From sequence record OL539451.1: a stretch of DNA of 48,302 bases. One strand, written 5' to 3'. Positions 4,008-47,554 of this stretch are shown piece after piece. Numbering within the stretch: position 1 is the first letter of the stretch; each line of letters opens with the position of its first letter. The notes beneath the pieces were generated by a model, which searched no databases, had not been told where the DNA came from, and saw only the letters and a list, made by a program, of their open reading frames with translations. The position numbers and the translations under genes are program-made. Source of the stretch: Escherichia phage vB_EcoD_Opt-719.

Positions 4008-5106
4008 AATGCGTTATGACAGCGCTAAAGTAAAAGCCCGTTTCGATGAGAACGGGTTTCTAGTGGACACTCCAGTGGTTGCTCGTGTTGGTGTTCAAAC
4101 ATACTACATGCCAGATGGCTCAGAGCGCCGAGAGTTCCGACCAGCATCAGAGGTGTTTAAATCCGATTCCCTGCAAAGCTATCAGGGCAAGCCGCTTACG
4201 CTTGGTCATGTAGTTGTTAATTCAGATAACGCCAAGGATGTTGTAGTTGGAGCAGTATCTGGTGCAGCTATGCGTCAGGATTCTACAGTTGTCGTTCCTC
4301 TAACAGTTTACGATAAGCAGGCAATAGAAAAGGCTAAGTCTGGCGTTGCTGGTGAGCTATCGGTTGGCTATAACACTGTTGATATTGAGTCTCCTGGCTG
4401 GGGTAGTAACGAAACGGGTGAGTATAAGCTTGATGGAGAGTACGCAAGCCAGGATGATATCCCTGCTGATTGGGTACGCTTTGATGCCCTGCAAACAAAC
4501 ATCGTTGTGAACCACATTGCTCTGGTATATAAAGGCCGCGCGCAAGTAGCTAAACTGAATCTGGACGCGGAACAGGAAAACCCGTATACTGATACCGTTC
4601 AATCAAATAAAGAGGATAAATTGATGATTAAGATTAAACTGGATGGCGAGCAGGAGTTCGAAATCGCCCCGGAAGTTGCTAAGCACATCGAAGCTGTTAA
4701 AGCTGATGCAGAACAGGCAAAAGCAAAAGCTGACACCCTTGAAGCTGAGCGTGACGCACTGAAAGCTAAAGTTGATGGCATTCCTGCTGAAATTGAATCT
4801 GCCGTAGCGAAAGCTAAAGCTGATGCTGACGAACTGGCCGCTCTGGTTGCTACCGCTGCAGAAGCTGGCGTTAAAGCTGATGGTATGGATGCTAAAGCAA
4901 TCAAAGTTGCTTACGTTAAAGAAGTATCCGGCCTTGACGTTGCAGAGAAATCTGACGCATACATCGATGCGGCCTTTGATATCGCTAAAGATAGTGATAA
5001 AATGGCTGAAGTCCGCAAAGCAGTTGTTGCTGCGGATAAATCTGACGCTGCCGACGCGCCTAAGAAATTAGACCCGCGCGCTCGCCTCGCTAAATTGAAA
5101 AAATAA
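3997..5106 (+). CDS. putative head maturation protease/scaffolding protein
   Basis: 369 aa; globular N-terminal domain then long Ala/Lys/Glu/Asp-rich coiled-coil-like C-terminus; GAGGAGG RBS; between portal and capsid genes. Confidence 0.45.
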   Translation: MKSKMRYDSAKVKARFDENGFLVDTPVVARVGVQTYYMPDGSERREFRPASEVFKSDSLQSYQGKPLTLGHVVVNSDNAKDVVVGAVSGAAMRQDSTVVVPLTVYDKQAIEKAKSGVAGELSVGYNTVDIESPGWGSNETGEYKLDGEYASQDDIPADWVRFDALQTNIVVNHIALVYKGRAQVAKLNLDAEQENPYTDTVQSNKEDKLMIKIKLDGEQEFEIAPEVAKHIEAVKADAEQAKAKADTLEAERDALKAKVDGIPAEIESAVAKAKADADELAALVATAAEAGVKADGMDAKAIKVAYVKEVSGLDVAEKSDAYIDAAFDIAKDSDKMAEVRKAVVAADKSDAADAPKKLDPRARLAKLKK

Positions 5107-7046: not shown

Positions 7047-7577
7047 ATGGCTTACACAGAAATTGCTATGGCGGTAGGGAATTCACCTGAAATCTTAGCC
7101 AGGAACGTAAAAATGATGATGTCATCTGGATTTCAGCCATATGGTGACGTCCAGATGCTAAGCGGCACTCTCTTTGGCATGAAAATGGCCAAGGGAACAG
7201 CAAACAACGTTGAAGACTTTATGGTGACATCCGACACCACAGTTCAGGGATTGATTAACAGGGTTAACCGATATCTTTTGCAGGGCTGGAAAAGGTTTGG
7301 CAATGCTCACTTTGAGGATGGAGCATATCTTTCAGCACTTGCGAAAGGTGATTTTGTAAGTGATGAAGACGGAGGCTCAGGTGAAGCAGGCCCACAAGGT
7401 CCGATTGGTCCACAGGGTCCAGCAGGTCCCGCAGGCGCAGCTGGTCCGCAAGGTCCTCAAGGTCCAACTGGTGCAACTGGCCCAGCGGGTGCGGCAGGTG
7501 CTAAAGGTGACACTGGCCCACAAGGTCCGGCAGGTCCGCAAGGTCCTCAAGGTGAAACTGGCGAGGCTGGTCCATAG
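7047..7577 (+). CDS. collagen-like repeat protein, upstream segment ending at in-frame amber
   Basis: ~110-aa N-domain then ~22 uninterrupted Gly-X-Y triplets (GPQGP...); ends at TAG 7575-7577 inside the repeat. Confidence 0.6.
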
Positions 7578-8558
7578 GGTCCTATCGGCCCAACGGGCGC
7601 CACAGGTCCGGCTGGCCCAAAAGGTGATAAAGGTGATGCAGGCCCAGTTGGCCCGGCAGGATTAACTTTCCGCGGGATGTACGACGCAGCTACTGCTTAC
7701 GTTAAAGATGATGTGGTTACATTCAATAACTCTAGCTGGTTTGCTACCGCCGCTGTGACCGGAGAGAATCCAGATGTTAGCGATTCCTGGGAGTTGCTGG
7801 CCGCGCAGGGCGCTCCAGGTCCGCAAGGCGCAACTGGTCCAGCAGGCCCAACTGGCCCGGCAGGCCCTGCAGGTATTCAGGGACCTCAGGGAGAGAGAGG
7901 GCTTCATGGTGAGCAAGGTCCGTCAGGCCCGCAAGGCTTGCAAGGTGCAGCTGGTCCAGTTGGACCTCAAGGCCCAGCAGGTCCTCAGGGTGAGCGAGGA
8001 ATACAGGGTCCGGTTGGCCCTCAAGGATTGCAGGGTGTAAAAGGTGATCCAGGCGTTAATTCTACATATACACTACCTTTAAAAAACTACCTTGTAATAG
8101 CCCTTAATGAAGAGGAGGGGGCGAGGCAGACATTCAGGGTGCCAGAAGACAGTTCGGGAGCTGAAATAGCTTTTGTGGTCAGAAATAAAGATTCTTCAAA
8201 CACTTCACCATCTGGAGTTTATGAGCTGGGATGTGGAGTGACTGGTACGGCTTCAATGCACTTTTCAGGTTGGATTATTAGTAACCTTAACCAACCAGAT
8301 AAAATAAGATCAGCCTCTATGCTAATTGCTTCCATGACTAATAGTCAGCGATACTTTACGCAGTTAGCAATAGGAACAAGGGGTGATCTTTTTAAAGGTT
8401 GCTTAACCAATCAGGAAACTGGTGAGCTATGGTACATTGAGGCTTTTGGTACCAAGCCAAGAGGGGCAGGGCAAACCGACTTAGGTAGACTCTCAGTTAA
8501 GATTGAGAAAAGAGTTGATACAGTAGTTGGAAGCTTAACAAAATTCCCAAGAGTTTAA
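7578..8558 (+). CDS. collagen-like repeat protein, downstream segment in same frame (possible readthrough product or pseudogene remnant)
   Basis: frame open immediately after the TAG; Gly-X-Y phase continues for 10 triplets, second collagen run, then ~200-aa C-terminal globular domain; first ATG at 7677. Confidence 0.5.
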
Positions 8559-37234: not shown

Positions 37235-37420
37235 ATGGCTAAGTTCACACAATCAGATGCACAAATCGAAGTTAAAGATGTTGGTTTTGGTAAGGCATTC
37301 AAGATTGCGCAGGCGTACGGGTCTAGCGAAGAAGATGTGAAAGTTGACACTATTAACCTTACTGCTAAGAATGCACGTGAGATCGCTTATGCAATCCTTG
37401 CAGCACTTGGAGAAAAATGA
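37235..37420 (+). CDS. hypothetical protein (61 aa)
   Basis: GAGAGGA RBS; first cistron after promoter cassette. Confidence 0.45.
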   Translation: MAKFTQSDAQIEVKDVGFGKAFKIAQAYGSSEEDVKVDTINLTAKNAREIAYAILAALGEK

Positions 37421-37421
37421 A

Positions 37422-37595
37422 ATGACTAAATTATTTTGCGTAATCAACAAATCAAAAACTCTGCCGTTCACTGTAAACAATCCGTATAGCGCTGAGTATC
37501 AGGGTGAAGGAAACTACAAGATTTATGGCGATGACATGACATGGATTTTTGCGCCAATCGATGGAGCTTTGTTGGAATTCATTATCGCAGACTAA
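37422..37595 (+). CDS. hypothetical protein (57 aa)
   Basis: ATG 2 nt after upstream TGA; same frame as track ORF 37344..37595. Confidence 0.35.
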   Translation: MTKLFCVINKSKTLPFTVNNPYSAEYQGEGNYKIYGDDMTWIFAPIDGALLEFIIAD

Positions 37596-39437: not shown

Positions 39438-41021
39438 TCACCCCAGCAGTCGTGGATTAATGTAAACCTTATCACCAATCAGGCAGGTGTAGTTTTTCTC
39501 ATCAAGCATCGGAAGTAAATGGTCTTTAATCTTAGCCATTACGCCAGCCTGAGCCTCAAACGGTCTAACCTTACGTGCCGCTTCATAGAGTGATCGCAAC
39601 CCCACCACTCCTTTACTGTTCTTTCCTTGCTTAATAAGAATATCAATTAGCTTGTTCATCTCTGCATTATCACCAGCGTGACCAGCAGCATTAGCGGAAG
39701 ACAAGTAAGTCTTACTCAGTTCTTCAAACATAAGAAGAGCTTCTTGCATCGTTTCAAGCCCAATCTCCCTGGACTTCTGCGGACTCCCTCCGTTTGGATT
39801 AAACCAGTTACGGATAGTGTGAAGAACTGCCGCTATCCTGATTACCTGCTTATCCATTTTACCTAACGCTCCGCGCAACATTGTGTGCGAGTACTTACCG
39901 CCATCTGCAAGGTGCGGCTCCATTTCCTGACGAGCACGGTTGAGGTGCTTCATTGCTGAATTACTGACAGTTAGTTTTACATCTTGCTCGCTCATTATTT
40001 CATGAACAAGACGAAAGTAATCTGCCTTTAATCCACCATCAATTGGTTTATATGTTGACTCGCCCTCATCATCAACAAACACACGCTCACCAAGGAATGA
40101 CTTCTCGCGCACAAGAAGGAAACGCTCTGATACACCGATACCGCGAGCGCCAGCATTCATGATTGCGACGATTGTTTCATCCTGCGCAATTACAGAAATG
40201 CAACCCATAGCAATAAAGCTCATGTTGTTCTCTGCGTTCGCACGCGCGATAGATACGTTACCAGCATCCCAGGCCTTCAGAACAAGTTCGCTGTTAGTTT
40301 TCTTCGAGCCATCACCGTAAGTCATACCAAGAAGTGAGTTAACACTTGTCGCTTCATCAGAAATCACGGAGAAGTTGCCCTGGCGGTTGTTGATTCGCGC
40401 AAGACCTTCCGGGGTAGTATCAGATACCGGAAACACAATGTCGCACAGCTTTTCTAACTTCTCTTCCAACTCCTCTTTATCTTCGAATAATCCAGCCATC
40501 TCAGATGGTGACTTCTCTTGCTTCATTTCTTTTGCCAGGGCTGACAATTTAGCCATAATCTTCTTACGGTCACGCTTGCGTAATTCGTTCAATCGCTCAG
40601 TCTCAGCAATCATTGGCGCTAGTGCGAGTGAGTTAATAGCTGACTTACCAGTTGATGGAGGCTGACTGGTTACTACGTACAGCGCGGTAGGCTGCTGAGT
40701 TCCATGATACTCAACCGTAAAGCGACCAAGCATTGCTGCTGAAATACACCCAAGGAAGTGCATGTAAGCTGAAGACTCTGGGAACTGAACTGAGCGTGCG
40801 ATATTGCTTGATAATTTACCAACGACATCACAATCATTTCCTAGCGAGATGACCGGATATTTGTCACCAGTTGAATCAATTTCTACCGGAGCCTTCCAGA
40901 ATGATGCACTCTGTCGATAACCATTGGCATTAATAGCAACTCGCAATGGTGGTAAATTTTCAGCTGCCGCAACAGACATTACTTGTTCGACTGATAATTT
41001 ATCTTCGTTAAAATCAAACAT
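39438..41021 (-). CDS. P-loop NTPase with N- and C-terminal modules shared with mini-paralog 43328..43870
   Basis: 527 aa; deviant Walker A QPPSTGKS (aa ~120-127) and Walker B FSVISDEAT (aa ~218-224); N-terminal 45 aa and C-terminal ~75 aa ~60-65% identical to the 180-aa plus-strand protein. Confidence 0.55.
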   Translation of the reverse strand: MFDFNEDKLSVEQVMSVAAAENLPPLRVAINANGYRQSASFWKAPVEIDSTGDKYPVISLGNDCDVVGKLSSNIARSVQFPESSAYMHFLGCISAAMLGRFTVEYHGTQQPTALYVVTSQPPSTGKSAINSLALAPMIAETERLNELRKRDRKKIMAKLSALAKEMKQEKSPSEMAGLFEDKEELEEKLEKLCDIVFPVSDTTPEGLARINNRQGNFSVISDEATSVNSLLGMTYGDGSKKTNSELVLKAWDAGNVSIARANAENNMSFIAMGCISVIAQDETIVAIMNAGARGIGVSERFLLVREKSFLGERVFVDDEGESTYKPIDGGLKADYFRLVHEIMSEQDVKLTVSNSAMKHLNRARQEMEPHLADGGKYSHTMLRGALGKMDKQVIRIAAVLHTIRNWFNPNGGSPQKSREIGLETMQEALLMFEELSKTYLSSANAAGHAGDNAEMNKLIDILIKQGKNSKGVVGLRSLYEAARKVRPFEAQAGVMAKIKDHLLPMLDEKNYTCLIGDKVYINPRLLG

Positions 41022-41057
41022 CTTATTCTCTCTATTTGTTATCGATGGGTATAAATA

Positions 41058-41075
41058 TACCCGCCGAAGCGGGTA
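41058..41075 (-). other. hairpin within promoter cassette (ACCCGC-CGAA-GCGGGT)
   Basis: perfect 6-bp stem between motif copy and ATPase gene RBS. Confidence 0.4.
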
Positions 41076-41081
41076 GTGTCA

Positions 41082-41100
41082 TTAACAAAAAGTGCTATTT
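41082..41100 (-). promoter_or_regulatory. promoter-cassette motif copy (minus orientation)
   Basis: reverse complement AAATAGCACTTTTTGTTAA; abuts stop of 41099..41452. Confidence 0.5.
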
Positions 41101-41452
41101 ACTTATACTGAGCTTCAAACTTATACATCCCATAACCAACATCATAGCCAACTTCATCATCGCGAGTAAGTTGCCAGCCGTCACCTTCGTTGTCGTAGAT
41201 GTAGCCAGCATTACGACCTAATCCAGCGTGCATGGAGACCTGGTAACGCTTACCTTCAGTAAATGATTTCTTGAGCGGATTGCTGTGGTCAACCCTGGTG
41301 CACAGTAGTGTCTTTGTCTTAATGTAGTGACCGTTCATGTCTATATTAACCCATTTGCCATCGACCTTAATTTGTTCAACTCCATCTTTTGCTCGAGCTT
41401 TAAATAATTTGTTATCGCTGCTTACCCAGTTCTTTGTGATGGTAGTGGCCAT
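41099..41452 (-). CDS. hypothetical protein (117 aa)
   Basis: AAAGGAAAG RBS; first gene after motif/hairpin cassette on minus strand. Confidence 0.45.
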   Translation of the reverse strand: MATTITKNWVSSDNKLFKARAKDGVEQIKVDGKWVNIDMNGHYIKTKTLLCTRVDHSNPLKKSFTEGKRYQVSMHAGLGRNAGYIYDNEGDGWQLTRDDEVGYDVGYGMYKFEAQYK

Positions 41453-41517
41453 TATTACTTTCCTTTTATGCGTGTCATTTCAGTGATTTCAATATACATC
41501 ATAAGCCCCGAAGGGCT

Positions 41518-41536
41518 TTAACAATTAGTGCTATTT
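41518..41536 (-). promoter_or_regulatory. promoter-cassette motif copy (minus orientation) with adjacent hairpin
   Basis: reverse complement AAATAGCACTAATTGTTAAA followed by hairpin GCCC-CGAA-GGGC. Confidence 0.45.
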
Positions 41537-41683
41537 CTTTGCTGCTTTTGCAATTGCTTTCTGAACAATGTCGAAACTCTCAATCAAATCTTCTTTAAAG
41601 TAGTCACCAACAGGCCAGCCCTTGCCGCTGTACTTTGCTATGGTTTCTAGATCGTAATAGTTCAAATCAGATGGCTTAAGCAT
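41531..41683 (-). CDS. hypothetical small protein (50 aa)
   Basis: GAGGTGAG RBS; ATG immediately follows upstream TAA; stop lies in motif. Confidence 0.3.
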   Translation of the reverse strand: MLKPSDLNYYDLETIAKYSGKGWPVGDYFKEDLIESFDIVQKAIAKAAKK

Positions 41684-41923
41684 TTATCTCACCTCATCAA
41701 AAGTGGCGATTCCAGGGATGAACATACCAACCTTCCAGCCAGCTATAGCAATCCACCCCGAATCGTGCTTGTGCGGACGCTCAGCGCCATTAATCACCCA
41801 TTCGTTCGGGATTGTCTTACCGTTAATGATAAGCGGCTCAGCGTCGTATACAGAGTCTTTTACGAACGGTGTTAAAACCTTCTTATCCGTGCTTTGGATA
41901 ACGTTAGTGCAGCGAATCTTCAT
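41684..41923 (-). CDS. hypothetical protein (79 aa)
   Basis: GAGGT RBS; overlaps stop of upstream acidic gene. Confidence 0.45.
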   Translation of the reverse strand: MKIRCTNVIQSTDKKVLTPFVKDSVYDAEPLIINGKTIPNEWVINGAERPHKHDSGWIAIAGWKVGMFIPGIATFDEVR

Positions 41924-42138
41924 GCTAATACCTCGATTTCTTCTTCCGTAACGCTGAATTCTTCACCTTCATAAACAGCCGTGATGCCATCAATTACAAC
42001 ATCGCGCTTCGCATCAATGAAGTACTCACCTTCAAGTTCAAACACCTCAACCTCTTCACCAACTTCATAGCCCATCTCAGCCAGGCTTAATGCATCTTCG
42101 TCAAACTTGATTTCGTTGTTGATAATAATCGCTTTCAT
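41920..42138 (-). CDS. hypothetical acidic protein (72 aa), paralog of 46598..46810
   Basis: start ATG 42138 with GAGGAG RBS (track TTG 42177); MKAIIINNEIKFDED...GYEVGEEVEV versus MKIKIIDVDYVTDDE...GFEIGDVVEV. Confidence 0.45.
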   Translation of the reverse strand: MKAIIINNEIKFDEDALSLAEMGYEVGEEVEVFELEGEYFIDAKRDVVIDGITAVYEGEEFSVTEEEIEVLA

Positions 42139-42191
42139 CTGATATCTCCTCGTTGTCGATGTGATAACTATAACCAATCAGGGCTGAATGG

Positions 42192-42211
42192 TCATTAGCA
42201 AAAAGTGCTAT
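42192..42211 (-). promoter_or_regulatory. promoter-cassette motif copy (minus orientation)
   Basis: reverse complement AATAGCACTTTTTGCTAATG with TATAGT and CATCGACAACGAGGAG leader toward 41920..42138. Confidence 0.5.
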
Positions 42212-42214
42212 TCG

Positions 42215-42345
42215 TTCGATTTATGGATTGTTGCAGATATTGCAATGATTCACTTCACTATTGCATGTATAGCAATATTGCATCGATTGCAATGATTTTC
42301 TGGACTGTTGCGAAATTTAGCAATGATTGATGGATTGATGGAATG
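42215..42345. repeat. iteron-like array (GCAATGATT x3, ATTGCAAT palindromes, ATTGATGG x2); candidate origin/operator
   Basis: approx. coordinates; three direct GCAATGATT copies near 42241, 42288, 42319, two perfect ATTGCAAT palindromes and several ATTGCA/TAGCAAT half-sites in an ORF-free divergent region. Confidence 0.5.
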
Positions 42346-42509
42346 AAGGAGGGCGCATCAACTAGTTGGTTGGTTTTAGCTTACACGAGGAGCTTTCCTT
42401 TATATACGCGTTATGGCTTGTTCAACCGTGTGGAGAAATTGCCATATTTACGCCATCCACGCCAGTTTACGCGCTGGTTACAAAATAAATCCCTTATATA
42501 ACAACCTTT

Positions 42510-42540
42510 TAGATTTATTATTATTATTATTATTATATAT
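42510..42540. repeat. (TTA)n microsatellite in AT-rich spacer
   Basis: approx. coordinates; TTATTATTATTATTATTAT followed by ATATATG; candidate DNA-unwinding element next to iterons. Confidence 0.4.
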
Positions 42541-42812
42541 GTTATCCCGTAACCATGATTATCCAAGATATTGGTGATATTTTTTTGATATTGCGCGGCG
42601 CATAAAGATTTAGATAAAGAGATAGGGATGCAAGTGGGGTGGAGAAAATGGCTTAACAGACCATAACGGCAATAACAGCCTTGATATGACTAGCGTCAGC
42701 ATGTAACAATTTAGCATAACGTGCGATTACTGAGTTGAACGTGTAAATAATGCTTGCGACATTCACCCATCATGGTAAGATGCTCTCACACTAAACGAGA
42801 GGAGTAGTAAAA

Positions 42813-43328
42813 ATGAGTAATACAATTCGTGAAGCAAACCCGACACTTGGCGACCTGGTGCGCCACCTTGTTAAGATGGCACTCAATTCAGAGGATGGAA
42901 GCGTAACAGTTCCCGTTAAGTTGCTTTACAAGAATCTTTACGGAGAAATTGATAACGGCTATGTAGCAGCCGACTTTAGACCTGGCGGCAAATATTCACT
43001 TCCAAAGCTTAAGGCTTCCTATGTTTCAAATACAGCCAGTAGAATGCAGGAAGTTAAAGACGCAGATAAGCGCGCAAGGTTCTCTTGTGGAGAGATGGAT
43101 TATAATGGTGATGAGCATTATTGCGTAAAAATCACAATGGTCGACGGAGCTGTTAAGAATGGAACCCGAGCTAAGACAAGCAGTCAATTAGAGGAGAAAG
43201 CGGTAAGCGAGTTTAAAGCCAGGCTACTTAAGCTTTCCCCTAGCGTTGCAGGCATGAGTGGTGATGAACTTAAGGGCGCGGTAACTATGATTAACGCATA
43301 TCAGGAAATGATTAAGGAGACTAAATAA
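42813..43328 (+). CDS. hypothetical protein (171 aa)
   Basis: first gene of rightward early block; GAGAGGAG RBS. Confidence 0.5.
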   Translation: MSNTIREANPTLGDLVRHLVKMALNSEDGSVTVPVKLLYKNLYGEIDNGYVAADFRPGGKYSLPKLKASYVSNTASRMQEVKDADKRARFSCGEMDYNGDEHYCVKITMVDGAVKNGTRAKTSSQLEEKAVSEFKARLLKLSPSVAGMSGDELKGAVTMINAYQEMIKETK

Positions 43329-43870
43329 TGTTTGATTTCAAAGAGGATAAACTTACTTATGAGCAGGTGTTAGCAGCAGCAGCGGCAGACAATCTGCCTC
43401 CCTTGCGAGTATCAATAATTGCAAATGGTTACCGACAATCTGCAAATCTATGGCCTGAACTGGATAAGGTCAAAGATTTCGAACTAGACACTGGAGCTTT
43501 AAAGATTATAGAAATCCTCATTAATCAAGGAATGAGCAGTAAAGGTGTCGTTGGTCTCGGGTCACTATATAATACAGTAAGGAAAGTTAAACCATTCGAA
43601 GGTAAAAGTGAAGTAATTATGGATATCAGAGATGTCATCATCCCAAACCTTGATAAGCTTGGCTATGCATGCCTAATCGGAGATAAGATTTACATCAACC
43701 CTAAACTGCTTGATGGCAACCAGGACTGGACTTACAAGGTTAAGCTGCTGGAAGATGATTTCAACATCGACGATTGCGAGAAGATTGTTGACGAGATTAC
43801 TATCAAGGCAATTGATGAGCAAATCGAGAGGCTCAAGCGGAAGAAGAAGTACCTCCTGACCGGTAAATAG
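43328..43870 (+). CDS. ATPase-less mini-paralog of the 39438..41021 P-loop protein
   Basis: 180 aa; MFDFKEDKLTYEQVLAAAAADNLPPLRVSIIANGYRQSA and KGVVGLGSLY...CLIGDKIYINPKLL match the N- and C-termini of the 527-aa protein; ATG overlaps upstream TAA. Confidence 0.55.
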   Translation: MFDFKEDKLTYEQVLAAAAADNLPPLRVSIIANGYRQSANLWPELDKVKDFELDTGALKIIEILINQGMSSKGVVGLGSLYNTVRKVKPFEGKSEVIMDIRDVIIPNLDKLGYACLIGDKIYINPKLLDGNQDWTYKVKLLEDDFNIDDCEKIVDEITIKAIDEQIERLKRKKKYLLTGK

Positions 43871-43884
43871 CACGAATTGCTAAA
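43865..43884 (+). promoter_or_regulatory. promoter-cassette motif copy
   Basis: AAATAGCACGAATTGCTAAA; contains TAG stop; GGGATGCG, TTATAGT and CATCGAAACGAAA downstream. Confidence 0.5.
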
Positions 43885-43948
43885 CCAGTTCCGCAGGGAT
43901 GCGTTATAGTTATTTCATCGAAACGAAATGGTTAATAGAGGAAGGCAA

Positions 43949-44107
43949 ATGAGTTATTACGAAGTTATCGACACTGGCAATAAATCATTACTTGGCTCAA
44001 AGCGCTTTAAATGTACCGGCCAAGGGTTCACTGGATACGGCTTTGACGAGAAAGATGCCATCCTGGAATGGAAAGAAGCTAAATACATTGGGGAGTTCGA
44101 CGAATGA
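43949..44107 (+). CDS. hypothetical small protein (52 aa)
   Basis: first cistron after promoter cassette (GAGGAAGG RBS); below ORF-track cutoff. Confidence 0.35.
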   Translation: MSYYEVIDTGNKSLLGSKRFKCTGQGFTGYGFDEKDAILEWKEAKYIGEFDE

Positions 44108-44247
44108 AACACATTGGATGGCTGGTAAACGGAACGTTCTACTCACTAACCGACGCAGTAAGGGTGGAAAGAATTAGAGTTAACTGCGGACGAAATGTCC
44201 AGATTCTTGAAATTTACGCAGAGGAGGAAGTATGCGTAAGGTACTGA
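44104..44247 (+). CDS. hypothetical small protein (47 aa)
   Basis: ATG overlaps upstream TGA (ATGA); 3' end overlaps start of membrane-protein gene; GGAG RBS. Confidence 0.3.
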   Translation: MKHIGWLVNGTFYSLTDAVRVERIRVNCGRNVQILEIYAEEEVCVRY

Positions 44248-44708
44248 TGATATGCGTCTATGTTGCCATATTCTTATTGGCAAACCTCCTGGTAGCCTCA
44301 TTTGGTCCAGCGGTAACTCCATTTAACGCACTTTTTCTTATAGCGGCAGACATGGTATTAAGGGACAGGATTCAGTTTGAGAGCGGTGCGGCATGGTCAA
44401 TACTAGCATGCTTCCTTGCCGGATTTGCGACTGTATTAATAGCGCCAGGTTCAGAGATGATTGCTTTAGCATCTGGCCTATCATGCTTACTTGCTGGATC
44501 AGCTTCAGCGATTGCATTCAAATTAAAGTCTGGTGGATTTTTTCAGAAGGCGTTGCCAGCAAACGTAATTGCTGCTGCGGTAGATTCAATTGCATTCCCA
44601 TTAATTGCTTTCGGGTCTATAATGCCAGGCATAACAGCAGCCCAGTTTGCCGCTAAAACTATTGGCGCATCAATCATACTATTAATCATAAGGAAATTAT
44701 CTAAGTGA
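44232..44708 (+). CDS. polytopic inner-membrane protein, tentatively YhhQ/Vut-like (DUF165) transporter
   Basis: 158 aa, ~5 predicted TM helices, GAGGAGG RBS; family guess from size, topology and conserved-looking Asp/Arg residues (AADMVLRDR, AVDSIAFPLIAF); unverified. Confidence 0.4.
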   Translation: MRKVLMICVYVAIFLLANLLVASFGPAVTPFNALFLIAADMVLRDRIQFESGAAWSILACFLAGFATVLIAPGSEMIALASGLSCLLAGSASAIAFKLKSGGFFQKALPANVIAAAVDSIAFPLIAFGSIMPGITAAQFAAKTIGASIILLIIRKLSK

Positions 44709-45535
44709 CAATTCACTTCCATGGCTCCCCTATAACGGGGGGCAAGGGCGATGCACTTGCTCGGACCGCGTATACAAATGGCGGTGCTTTCGTGTCATTC
44801 GCCCACCCGCAGCAGATAGAATTGGCGTTTAAGGTAGCGAATGCAGTATGCATAGATAATGGTGCGTTCTCTAAGAAGAATAGCGGCAAAGCTACTGACT
44901 GGCATAAATTCTATAATGACTTTTTACCCAGATTTATCGACAGAGAAAAGTTACGATTCTTTGTTATACCTGATGATATCAGCGGGTGCGACAAAGAGAA
45001 CGACAGATTAATAAGCGAACTTCCATTACACCTAAAGCACAAAGGAGCTCCAGTCTGGCATATGCATGAGAGCTTAGACAGGCTAGTCCACCTTGCCAAC
45101 GAGTGGGAATACATGTGTATAGGCTCGTCAGGCGAGTACTACTCTATCCGTTCAGAGAAATGGAAGCGGCGCATGAATGATGCCTTTAACGCTCTAATTC
45201 AGAGGGGCTACTCAGCAAAAATTCACGGCCTCAGAATGCTGGATGGTCGAGTTCTTGGCAACTACCCACTGGATCAGGCTGACTCAACAAACCTGGCTAT
45301 TAATGCGCCTAAGTGGATATGCAAATATATAGATATGACCATTGAGGCGTGCCGAGCTCAGACTCACAGAGACGCATGGATTTCAACCTCAGATCCGAAG
45401 TTTGCACTTGAGCAATTAATCGCAGACGGCGGCACAAGGGAGCAGATGCTGGCACAGAGATGCGCGATACTCAGGAATTGCATAGAAGCAGTAAGGCCAC
45501 CATCAAGGGATTCATGGAATAGCACGAATTGCTAA
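44705..45535 (+). CDS. hypothetical enzyme, tentatively TGT/DpdA-like transglycosylase
   Basis: 276 aa; GTG start overlapping upstream TGA (GTGA); motif VCIDNGAFS loosely resembles TGT catalytic DSGGFQ; call rests mainly on gene context; unverified. Confidence 0.3.
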   Translation: MTIHFHGSPITGGKGDALARTAYTNGGAFVSFAHPQQIELAFKVANAVCIDNGAFSKKNSGKATDWHKFYNDFLPRFIDREKLRFFVIPDDISGCDKENDRLISELPLHLKHKGAPVWHMHESLDRLVHLANEWEYMCIGSSGEYYSIRSEKWKRRMNDAFNALIQRGYSAKIHGLRMLDGRVLGNYPLDQADSTNLAINAPKWICKYIDMTIEACRAQTHRDAWISTSDPKFALEQLIADGGTREQMLAQRCAILRNCIEAVRPPSRDSWNSTNC

Positions 45536-45536
45536 A
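45517..45536 (+). promoter_or_regulatory. promoter-cassette motif copy
   Basis: GAATAGCACGAATTGCTAAA; supplies TAA stop (C-terminal NSTNC) of upstream gene. Confidence 0.5.
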
Positions 45537-45592
45537 CAATAAATCGGGTAGTCAGCTATGATTACCCTATCAACAACGAAGAGGAAATGATT

Positions 45593-45805
45593 ATGGATAC
45601 TGGAATTTTACGCATTGACGATGTTCACTTTGACCAGGCTGAGGTCAGTGTCACCAAGTTAACCTTTCGAGGTAATGTTGTTAGCCTTGACTTCGATCCT
45701 GACGACTACGGCGACGGTCAAACACTTATGCAATACTCACCTGTTGCGGCCCGCAAATTAGCGGCGGCATTAATCCTGGCGGCAGAAGAGGCGGAAGAGC
45801 AATGA
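45593..45805 (+). CDS. hypothetical protein (70 aa)
   Basis: start ATG 45593 with GAGGAA RBS (track ATG 45587 has no spacing); Ala-rich acidic C-terminus. Confidence 0.4.
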   Translation: MDTGILRIDDVHFDQAEVSVTKLTFRGNVVSLDFDPDDYGDGQTLMQYSPVAARKLAAALILAAEEAEEQ

Positions 45806-46041
45806 TTACCATTAACCTGTCTTATGAACAAGCTGCAGAGCTAAAAGATATAATGCAGCACTCACTCATTAACAAGAATTATAGCTGCACAGAGGTGCTA
45901 TCAGAAGCGATTACACAGATTCAGAACCAACAGATAGCTGACGATGATGAACTCCCATGGGACACTGATACCGCCTGGAGCCGATACGAGCAGATTTGCA
46001 CAGCGCTATCAGGTTGTCAGCTGGCTAGCCAATACAAATGA
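45802..46041 (+). CDS. hypothetical protein (79 aa)
   Basis: ATG overlaps upstream TGA (ATGA). Confidence 0.4.
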   Translation: MITINLSYEQAAELKDIMQHSLINKNYSCTEVLSEAITQIQNQQIADDDELPWDTDTAWSRYEQICTALSGCQLASQYK

Positions 46042-46163
46042 CAATATACGAACACAAATTCAGTAGCAGGGGTATTGATATGCTCCTGCATTATGTAGAC
46101 GAGAGATACGCCATGTTGATGCAGAAGACGCATGGCGGCACAATAACGAGGATTGAGATATGA
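46038..46163 (+). CDS. hypothetical micro-ORF (41 aa)
   Basis: ATG overlaps upstream stop (ATGA); translationally coupled chain. Confidence 0.25.
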   Translation: MTIYEHKFSSRGIDMLLHYVDERYAMLMQKTHGGTITRIEI

Positions 46164-46294
46164 AGATTCATAATGGCGAATACAGTAATTTTTACATTGA
46201 TGAGTGCGTTGAACTATATGAAGGATATGGCGAGCCAACTGCGTGCCATGGAGATGAGCTTGGTATCAGCTTTCCCGAAGAGCGTGAGGATTGA
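46160..46294 (+). CDS. hypothetical micro-ORF (44 aa)
   Basis: ATG overlaps upstream stop (ATGA); GAGG RBS. Confidence 0.25.
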   Translation: MKIHNGEYSNFYIDECVELYEGYGEPTACHGDELGISFPEERED

Positions 46295-46297
46295 TAT

Positions 46298-46540
46298 ATG
46301 AGCAAGTACAACCGAGAGATTATCGGCCTGGATGGAACGTTAACGACAGTCGATGTATATCGTGTTCTGGATGCATTCCAGGTAACAGACCCAGCAATTC
46401 AGCACGCAATCAAGAAAATGCTCTGTACTGGGTTGCGAGGCCACAAGGATTACCTCACCGACATTGATGACTCAATAGAATCACTTAGGAAAGCAAAGGA
46501 GCTTTACGGTCAGAAGAAGATAAATAGCACGAATTGCTAA
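46298..46540 (+). CDS. hypothetical protein (80 aa)
   Basis: track ORF; C-terminus NSTNC supplied by promoter-cassette motif. Confidence 0.45.
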   Translation: MSKYNREIIGLDGTLTTVDVYRVLDAFQVTDPAIQHAIKKMLCTGLRGHKDYLTDIDDSIESLRKAKELYGQKKINSTNC

Positions 46541-46541
46541 A
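46522..46541 (+). promoter_or_regulatory. promoter-cassette motif copy
   Basis: AAATAGCACGAATTGCTAAA; GGGATGCG and CTAAATCGAAACGAA downstream. Confidence 0.5.
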
Positions 46542-46597
46542 CATCAATCGCAGGGATGCGTTACTATTACTAAATCGAAACGAACTAGGAAGAAGAA

Positions 46598-46810
46598 ATG
46601 AAAATTAAAATTATCGATGTTGATTATGTTACTGATGACGAGTCTATCACGCTTCGCGAATGCGGCTTCGAGATTGGCGATGTTGTAGAGGTGTCTGGTA
46701 AGTACAACAACGGAGAGCTTTCAATCCAGGCAATCCGTGAGACTGATTTTGTTAATGTTGGCAATGAGGTTAGTATAAGCGAATTTGAATATGAGGTAGT
46801 GGAAGAATGA
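46598..46810 (+). CDS. hypothetical acidic protein (70 aa), paralog of 41920..42138
   Basis: GGAAGAAG RBS; MKIKIIDVDYVTDDE...GFEIGDVVEV...EYEVVEE. Confidence 0.45.
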   Translation: MKIKIIDVDYVTDDESITLRECGFEIGDVVEVSGKYNNGELSIQAIRETDFVNVGNEVSISEFEYEVVEE

Positions 46811-46923
46811 AACCCTCTGAGTGGTGCAAAAAGATGATGGATGAGGCAAAAGACGGCGAGGAGGCGATGACATACTTTGAGTTGATGAATATGTGGCGTG
46901 AGCGCGAGGAGAAGAAATCGTGA
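46807..46923 (+). CDS. hypothetical micro-ORF (38 aa)
   Basis: ATG overlaps upstream TGA (ATGA); Glu/Lys-rich. Confidence 0.25.
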   Translation: MKPSEWCKKMMDEAKDGEEAMTYFELMNMWREREEKKS

Positions 46924-47054
46924 TTTGGATTCACACGTACTATACTGGCAAGTTCAATAGCGTAATGCACAAGAGGATGTATGACAGCTATGAAGCAGCA
47001 AAAGCACAACACGCAGTTCTCGGTGGCGACATTCAATCTTACAAGAAGGCTTAA
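46920..47054 (+). CDS. hypothetical micro-ORF (44 aa)
   Basis: GTG overlapping upstream TGA (GTGA); fills gap before ATG 47057. Confidence 0.2.
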   Translation: MIWIHTYYTGKFNSVMHKRMYDSYEAAKAQHAVLGGDIQSYKKA

Positions 47055-47056
47055 TT

Positions 47057-47296
47057 ATGTTCGGACTTACTCAACCGCAATTCAATGCAGTGCGCGCCCA
47101 GGCTAAGAAGCTAAACGAGGCAGTGGATAAGCTAACAGCCAAGCAGAAGCAGGATAACGATATCATGAAGGCAGTTATCTGTGAGTTCCATAGCCCGGTC
47201 AGTACAATCATCGAGAAGATGCGGTTCGTCTGGGTTGCTGGTTATCTGGCTGGCCGCGTTGGTAAGCGTGAAGATGGGAGTAATATCTATGATTAA
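47057..47296 (+). CDS. hypothetical protein (79 aa)
   Basis: track ORF; ATG 2 nt after upstream stop. Confidence 0.4.
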   Translation: MFGLTQPQFNAVRAQAKKLNEAVDKLTAKQKQDNDIMKAVICEFHSPVSTIIEKMRFVWVAGYLAGRVGKREDGSNIYD

Positions 47297-47489
47297 TCCA
47301 TTCAAGAGTTTCGCTGTTTCTATGGGATGGACTTGCAGGAAGCATGTATTCGTACTCTTTAGGCATATCAAGTGGTATGAGATTGAGTACTACCGCAAAG
47401 GATATAGAAGTAAGCTGGTATGTCGCAATTGCAATAAAATGATTTACTCTAAGATTGATTTTAATGATAAATTTGGATTGCCACTATGA
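47289..47489 (+). CDS. hypothetical protein (66 aa), possible Cys-containing small zinc-binding protein
   Basis: start ATG 47289 (track TTG 47181 overlaps previous gene); contains WTCRKH and CRNCNK. Confidence 0.35.
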   Translation: MINPFKSFAVSMGWTCRKHVFVLFRHIKWYEIEYYRKGYRSKLVCRNCNKMIYSKIDFNDKFGLPL

Positions 47490-47554
47490 CTGAACTATCA
47501 ATATGGTTCCTGGCTGGCATGCTGACTTGGATTTATTTCGTGGTCATGGCTTGA
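47486..47554 (+). CDS. hypothetical hydrophobic micro-ORF (22 aa)
   Basis: ATG overlaps upstream TGA (ATGA); MTELSIWFLAGMLTWIYFVVMA. Confidence 0.25.
   Translation: MTELSIWFLAGMLTWIYFVVMA

Follow-up and report, generated by a model that had tools for sequence, protein, structure and literature searches.

The 48,302-nucleotide sequence of Escherichia phage vB_EcoD_Opt-719 (record OL539451.1; this whole stretch is hereafter called the window) encodes two small acidic proteins on opposite strands that are true paralogs, namely two diverged members of the protein family phrog_5684. Copy A, of 72 amino acids, lies on the minus strand (41920..42138, stop codon included), and copy B, of 70 amino acids, lies on the plus strand (46598..46810, stop codon included). 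Both are predicted to be SH3-like in fold. A-type genes were seen only in Rogunavirinae, and B represents a type that is widespread in Drexlerviridae; this split, together with the presence of two diverged members on opposite strands of one genome, is new for phrog_5684. A preliminary description of this DNA had singled out the two open reading frames (ORFs) as a mirror-image pair of paralogs, and their translations match those quoted there exactly.

Homology of copies A and B

BLASTP aligns A with B at 36% identity over 73 columns, with E = 2e-6 for the single comparison. The comparison with shuffled sequences, to which the preliminary description had tied its claim of paralogy, comes out in favor of homology: the Smith-Waterman score of the pair is 84, compared with a shuffle mean of 32 (standard deviation 6.2; z = 8.3), and none of 20,000 composition-preserving shuffles equals it, the top score being 76 with both sequences shuffled and 71 with B alone shuffled. 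In PHROGs v4 both proteins are full-length members of phrog_5684, a PHROG that carries no function. A matches the profile at E = 2e-28, its residues 1-72 covering profile positions 1-74 of 75, and B at E = 2.8e-25, its residues 1-70 covering positions 1-75 of 75.

To prevent circularity in the homology test, separate profiles were built from A-type and from B-type sequences only. The A-type hidden Markov model (HMM) gives B 22.4 bits, the best among 5,000 shuffles of B reaching 13.5, and the B-type model gives A 29.8 bits, the best among 5,000 shuffles of A reaching 17.3. Aligned with each other by hhalign, the profiles of the two clades match over 66 columns with a probability of 97.2% and E = 3.4e-11. 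Although Asp, Glu and Val abound in both of these short proteins, and the C-terminus of A is masked by the low-complexity filter of BLAST, the notion that their resemblance is the chance product of two short acidic sequences of like composition is refuted by the shuffles, the common PHROG at E < 1e-24, the clade profiles and the same predicted folds, and its probability is negligible.

Both copies are real genes under purifying selection; in pairwise comparisons with their orthologues, the ratio of non-synonymous to synonymous substitution rates (dN/dS) is 0.08-0.55, mostly 0.1-0.4. The net charge is -18 for A and -13 for B, within a family range of -5 to -21 (mean -12). For A, the ATG start of the 72-residue form is the sensible one; the 85-residue version annotated in Escherichia phage vB_EcoD_Phleasolo starts at a TTG further upstream, and crosses the -10 box and the ribosome-binding site of A. 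Annotation problems in the near-identical GenBank records concern positions 4328-4999 of Phleasolo (L001) and 41920-42177 of the window.

Predicted fold and family membership

Structure prediction, which the preliminary description had suggested as a check, yields confident AlphaFold2 models of both proteins, with mean predicted local distance difference test (pLDDT) scores of 96.4 for A and 94.5 for B from a 75-sequence alignment. Both models are SH3-like barrels. They are all-beta with identical strand order, and show a five-stranded barrel with a long RT-loop, an n-Src loop and a distal loop; the model of A has one extra hairpin, arising from a five-residue insertion (VVIDGITAV). In BFVD, the model of A and that of the B-type protein of phage Sd1 can be superposed at 1.3 Å over 54 columns, and the other matches are uncharacterised phage proteins. 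The neighbours of the models in the PDB are SH3 domains (Foldseek, copy B).

Models and sequences together indicate that A and B are SH3-like in fold and are not canonical peptide-binding SH3 domains. With the SH3 domains of p47phox, RasGAP and Sho1 and with bacterial SH3b domains they share the five-strand barrel and the long RT-loop; they differ from them in standing alone and in being far more acidic, and A also in its extra beta-hairpin. Neither protein contains Trp or Pro, and the canonical ALYDY, WW and PxxY peptide-binding residues are absent from both. Searches of Pfam gave no SH3-clan match even at E up to 0.1, and sequence-profile searches of Pfam, NCBIfam and the PDB gave no meaningful family, the PDB profile search returning a weak match to the SH3 domain of p47phox (E = 0.06).

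Relatives of A and B are few and mostly of the same size. Among 5.8 billion proteins, a word-indexed search recovered 76, most of them of 55-85 residues and none with a precomputed Pfam domain. Among 1.84 billion representatives, an exhaustive HMM search recovered 24, 20 of 55-84 residues and four long ones, three of which are multi-repeat, and gave no lead on function. All relatives with a source name in either search come from T1-like phages or from E. coli. The names 'methyltransferase type 11', 'AbrB-like regulator' and 'portal protein' that databases give to some members are misleading and can be removed from the family: they have no counterpart among Pfam or NCBIfam matches, and the sole trace of the first is a PDB profile match to an S-adenosylmethionine-dependent methyltransferase at E = 1.3. 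In the literature on Drexlerviridae, Rogunavirinae and T1-like phages we found nothing on the A/B family.

Stand-alone SH3-like small phage proteins are already known, and A and B add members from an existing PHROG. Like A and B, DUF7244 is a small stand-alone SH3-fold protein of T1-like phages; its gene adjoins the lysis cassette of Drexlerviridae, between the DNA-repair exonuclease and the holin, and an endolysin-accessory role has been proposed for it (PMC13164509). The stand-alone SH3 protein of the KanT1 paper is this DUF7244, a gene distinct from A and B. The window has a DUF7244 protein of its own, within 37344-37595. A relationship of A and B to this protein was rejected: they do not match PF23896, hhalign against the DUF7244 protein of the window gives 0.1%, and their loci lie 4-9 kilobases (kb) from the lysis genes.

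Genomic setting and distribution among relatives

By megablast, the stretch 41000-47500 is nearly identical (at least 99% identity, 100% coverage) to Phleasolo, Escherichia phage vB_EcoD_Sadiya and Klebsiella phage vB_KpnD_Opt-79, and the next-best matches are Rogunavirinae at 81-91% identity, covering just 24-44% of it. From these matches the window is therefore placed, by its sequence, as a complete T1-like genome (Drexlerviridae, Rogunavirinae), permuted and beginning near the small terminase gene. Two arms diverge from a 674-bp intergenic region (42139..42812), the leftward one running from 42138 down to 39438 and the rightward one from 42813 on. The region contains four ATTGCAATGATT-like direct repeats at 42237-42328 and, near 42517, an (ATT)7 run. 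Its equivalent in T1 is the start of the record, where a 2.8-kb repeat_region (1-2800) is annotated as starting, shortly ahead of the rightward arm. If that repeat were the terminal redundancy, the 'divergent arms' would lie at opposite ends of the packaged DNA.

Whether relatives carry one or both copies, a check also proposed in the preliminary description, has a varied answer among the genomes and contigs compared. A and B occur together with a gene that we call the mini-helicase (described below) in the window and in contig L007. The whole genomes of AKS96 and phiEB49 have A and the mini-helicase without B, and L008 and e4/1c have A only. Sd1 has A together with a B copy that bears a nonsense codon at position 57, and shows no mini-helicase in the stretch read. 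XT34 (Nouzillyvirus) and Sushi (Webervirus) have B only, likewise in the stretches read. Neither A nor B was found in C119, in AHS24, in both arms of Rtp or in the first 9 kb of T1. C119 and AHS24 carry a gene of the size of the mini-helicase adjoining a DUF7174 gene.

Searched by tblastn, B-type genes occur in 454 phage records from Klebsiella, Escherichia and other T1-like phages. Among the relatives that were read, B has its place in the rightward block of small genes, about 2 kb upstream of the small terminase gene where the latter is in view. Judged from these records, the B-type copy is the one widespread in Drexlerviridae; its slot is fixed, and in Rogunavirinae this slot often stands empty. 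Genes of the A type were seen in Rogunavirinae only, and in every case they come first in the leftward arm. The tblastn search for them returned 14 records at any E-value limit, due to the low-complexity filter, and our counts of A-bearing phages are thus lower bounds. A scan of viral contigs added three loci only, all already known from GenBank. Of 500 neighbour-joining bootstraps, 382 (76%) recover the core A clade as monophyletic, and the B-type sequences are not resolved as a clade. This topology fits A being a lineage-specific offshoot, although the tree is short and weak.

A repeated promoter-like element precedes both genes

Both copies stand directly behind a similar stretch of about 70 nucleotides, made up of ATAGCAC-N4-TG(C/T)TAA, a spacer of 21-22 nucleotides, a TATAGT-like box, CATCGAAACGA, a Shine-Dalgarno sequence and the ATG. 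Upstream of A (42139..42211, minus strand) it reads ATAGCACTTTTTGCTAA (42211-42195), a 22-nucleotide spacer, TATAGT (42172-42167), CATCGACAACGAGGAG with the ribosome-binding site, and ATG; upstream of B (46524..46597, plus strand) it reads ATAGCACGAATTGCTAA (46524-46540), a 21-nucleotide spacer, TACTAT (46562-46567), AATCGAAACGAAC, the ribosome-binding site AGGAAG, and ATG. A sigma-70-like scan also picked 42195-42167 upstream of A.

A motif search with the 17-nucleotide core found 15 copies in the window, compared with 0.2 expected, at 2252, 23463(-), 26263, 31668, 34064, 35606, 36894, 37159, 41098(-), 41534(-), 42211(-), 42727(-), 43867, 45519 and 46524. All 14 exact copies point to a start codon 50-75 nucleotides downstream, and the one-mismatch copy at 42727(-) has none. 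Seven genomes keep the element upstream of A, its boxes fixed and its spacer variable, and it precedes the B-type genes of L007, Sd1, XT34 and Sushi, which belong to three subfamilies. The first 9 kb of T1 contain it seven times on the plus strand (L017 1450-8362), six times with a start codon close downstream, and once on the minus strand. Being conserved in Rogunavirinae, Nouzillyvirus, Webervirus and T1, the element looks like a general promoter of T1-like phages, and no mention of it was found in the literature searched. Within it, TAGCA-N5-TGCTA forms a perfect palindrome with its centre near -42 of the -10-like box, and looks like an activator site.

Since the element precedes genes all round the genome, it bears on A and B as heads of transcription units and says nothing on the 'early' expression that the preliminary description had ascribed to both arms. 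From this arrangement, each copy looks like the head of a small transcription unit. The next gene overlaps in both cases: the ATG of the 79-residue gene orf79 (41684..41923, minus strand; phrog_4448) overlaps the stop codon of A, and that of the 38-residue gene orf38 (46807..46923, plus strand; phrog_1312) the stop codon of B, both as ATGA. Because of these stop/start overlaps, A and orf79 are probably translationally coupled, and a similar coupling is suggested for B and orf38.

The element also helps to read the absence of B. Rogunavirinae without B keep the orthologous promoter with the same spacer sequence, and the homologue of orf38 follows 50-130 nucleotides on as the first conserved gene after the element, phiEB49 having an annotated 46-residue gp68 in between. 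Since the promoter is retained in these genomes, B is a clean insertion or deletion.

Copy A as a hot spot of divergence in a swappable slot

Orthologues of A are 46-82% identical, whereas the flanking helicase is 94-98% identical. The genes in between resemble the helicase in most relatives: of the six relatives with orf79, five show 90-94% identity and L008 shows 28%, and orf50 is 91-98% identical in four of six. By these comparisons A is a fast-diverging, local hot spot.

The divergence is unevenly placed within the protein. Residues 1-30 of A, comprising strand 1 and the RT-loop, are nearly invariant, and residues 31-62 are variable with insertions and deletions; the mean column entropy is 0.42 for the first 30 residues and 1.31 for the rest. 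For B the corresponding values are 1.25 and 1.18, and the pattern is opposite, the RT-loop being variable. In the N-terminal part of A, the proportion of non-synonymous differences (pN) is 0.08 and that of synonymous differences (pS) 0.39, implying constraint at the level of the protein and not of DNA identity alone. The length changes at residues 31-62 include CxxC inserts in the n-Src loop and one nine-residue tandem duplication. The latter, an in-frame repeat of GEEVEVFEF as GDEVEVFEF at the junction of strand 2 and the n-Src loop, occurs in L008 (10001-10246; P0055), and since the allele is present on 16 contigs it is a real, circulating variant.

Where A is missing, other genes occupy its place. 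In C119 (gp57, L018 1878-2072(-)) and AHS24 (gp66, L019 1886-2080(-)) the slot holds a 64-residue acidic protein of phrog_14327, and in Rtp yet another, unrelated gene (rtp75). Because unrelated small acidic genes fill it in these three phages, the A slot behaves as a swappable cassette at the head of the leftward arm. The phrog_14327 proteins resemble A in this location, in size and charge, in an MK.KI start and in an E.E..ED end, although they belong to a different PHROG. Homology of gp57 and gp66 to the A/B family was not demonstrable (hhalign 7.7%); the model of A shows a weak likeness in BFVD to a 64-residue AHS24 protein, assumed to be gp66, with template modelling (TM) scores of 0.59/0.65.

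A putative binder role and its alternatives

We tentatively propose that A and B are stoichiometric binders of a basic protein partner with two specificities, which we hold to be possible rather than probable. The predicted SH3-like fold, the extreme charge, the variability localised in loops, the promoter-proximal position and the cassette-like gain and loss are most plausibly read in this way. Each protein, an acidic single-domain barrel of about 8 kDa, would act as an inhibitor or decoy, or as an adaptor, and would make contact by the loop face with which SH3-like barrels bind. The partner would most probably be a host nucleic-acid-binding or defence protein. Two specificities could arise from the invariant RT-loop and the hypervariable n-Src/distal region of A, and from the reverse arrangement in B. 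Nothing seen in the sequences conflicts with the suggestion of the preliminary description that the copies may be two variants of the same host-takeover function.

Several points weigh against this proposal. The dN/dS values are below 1 wherever measured, hence there is no direct sign of positive selection, and the divergence of A could stem from recombinational allele shuffling rather than from an arms race. Since both proteins lack Trp, Pro and the canonical residues, their mode of binding cannot be read from classical SH3 domains. Phages commonly encode small acidic proteins, in many different roles. The relatives compared number about 15 genomes or contigs, and tblastn missed the A-type genes of Sd1 and e4/1c, both of which were found by HMM, so that A-type genes are undercounted by the former method.

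A role inside the phage, as an accessory of replication or packaging or as a co-factor of the presumed regulator that reads the TAGCA-N5-TGCTA box, would suit the location of both genes: A adjoins the repeat-bearing intergenic region that corresponds to the T1 record start and the start of its 2.8-kb repeat_region, and B lies in the block of small genes upstream of the small terminase gene. The almost invariant first 30 residues of A are also what a conserved phage partner would lead one to expect. However, the family is dispensable, with no member in the Rtp arms or the first 9 kb of T1 and with many Rogunavirinae lacking B, the A slot can hold unrelated genes, and a net charge of -13 to -18 makes DNA binding by the proteins themselves unlikely. 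A phage-internal role is the chief alternative to the binder proposal, and we regard it as unlikely.

As a sub-case of the binder proposal, A and B might be DNA mimics that act against restriction or other defences in the manner of Ocr or ArdA, their acidic surface imitating DNA and titrating nucleases or sensors of the host, and the paralogs covering different systems. The extreme negative charge across the family, the promoter-proximal position, the cassette-like presence and absence and the fast divergence would all agree with it, and T7 Ocr, ArdA and T4 Arn are likewise small, very acidic, promoter-proximal phage proteins. Their folds differ, however, and no sequence similarity was found, so that the analogy is one of function only; moreover, neither A nor B matches an anti-restriction family in Pfam, and the models are compact SH3-like barrels rather than elongated, DNA-like shapes. 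The BASEL study reportedly found Drexlerviridae to be broadly sensitive to restriction-modification systems, which also argues against mimicry, and we consider this sub-case quite improbable.

Returning to the binder proposal, it can be extended, on speculative grounds and with small odds of holding in full, to phrog_5684 as a whole. The family would consist of hypervariable SH3-like decoys by which T1-like phages counter defence or nucleoid proteins of the host; A, as a second and faster-evolving copy, would have been recruited by Rogunavirinae to a swappable slot, A and B would neutralise different host targets, and the phrog_14327 proteins and rtp75 would be functional analogues.

T1-like phages are common laboratory and therapeutic phages, and nearly all of their small non-structural genes are without an assigned function. 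For phrog_5684 there is now a confident predicted fold and an evolutionary pattern, with B conserved but dispensable and A lineage-restricted and quickly diverging in a swappable, promoter-proximal slot. This makes the pair a concrete and cheap target for studies of host takeover or anti-defence; if its role proves to be that of a minor accessory, the finding is an ordinary one.

Relation to the helicase/mini-helicase pair

The preliminary description had placed A and B beside a second family with one copy in each divergent arm, and in this it is borne out. Six-frame all-against-all BLASTP of ORFs of at least 35 residues gives two cross-arm paralog pairs in the window: A/B, and a DUF3987 helicase with its mini-helicase. 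The helicase (39438..41021, minus strand; 527 residues; phrog_2373) matches PF13148 at E = 5.5e-42 and has a partial copy in the opposite arm, the 180-residue mini-helicase (43328..43870, plus strand; phrog_7327). Residues 1-50 of the latter match helicase residues 1-53 at 64% identity, and residues 59-128 match 457-526 at 60%. The mini-helicase is thus a fusion of the N-terminal and C-terminal ends of the helicase, without the ATPase core, followed by a unique tail of 52 residues; it might act on the helicase as a regulatory or dominant-negative partner. The annotation of Phleasolo splits the region into three short coding sequences.

Two families with one copy per arm, and arms that diverge from a single intergenic region, could suggest that a module holding the helicase and the ancestor of A and B was once duplicated in inverted orientation and then decayed, as the preliminary description had supposed. 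Both pairs are real, but this part of the claim does not stand. Counted outward from the axis, the order on the left is A, orf79, orf50, orf117 and the helicase, and on the right a DUF7174 gene, the mini-helicase, about ten small or accessory genes and B, which is not a mirrored order. The pairs also differ in divergence. The helicase gene ends still show 69-78% nucleotide identity with the mini-helicase, whereas the coding DNA of A and B is without detectable similarity, with synonymous sites saturated, their sole DNA match being the shared promoter element.

Nor do the copies travel together. The states seen are A with B and the mini-helicase, A with the mini-helicase, A only, A with a truncated B and no mini-helicase, B only, and neither; AKS96, phiEB49 and L007 have the mini-helicase, which L008 and the Sd1 stretch read both lack. 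B, moreover, keeps the same slot in subfamilies in which no A-type copy was found in the stretches read. An inverted segmental duplication is contradicted by this order, divergence, assortment and conserved slot, and we consider it very improbable. On the genomes compared, a single mirror-image duplication is effectively excluded, and the two pairs go back to unrelated events.

Neighbouring genes and a further paralog pair

The rightward arm between the mini-helicase and B contains an insertion (43928-45535) that was found in none of the eight relatives compared. It carries two orphan ORFs of 59 and 47 residues, a VUT/YhhQ-like membrane protein (44232-44708; phrog_4899) and a DpdA-like protein of 276 residues (44705-45535) that matches phrog_887, 'queuine tRNA-ribosyltransferase'. 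These matches suggest a 7-deazaguanine DNA-modification or precursor-uptake module.

Directly upstream of B lies a gene for an 80-residue protein (46298-46540, plus strand) that matches only the C-terminal third of far longer PHROG families, aligning with positions 151-224 of 235 in phrog_2452 and with positions 172-244 of 246 in phrog_17613, 'ATPase'. This protein could be a stand-alone domain, or else a remnant.

A third intragenomic paralog pair is located in the head-gene region, with both genes on the plus strand (7047-7577 and 7677-8558). The encoded proteins, of 176 and 293 residues, are 57% identical across 68 residues, and in relatives the counterpart of the 176-residue protein bears Phage_cement / XM1_gp53 domains.

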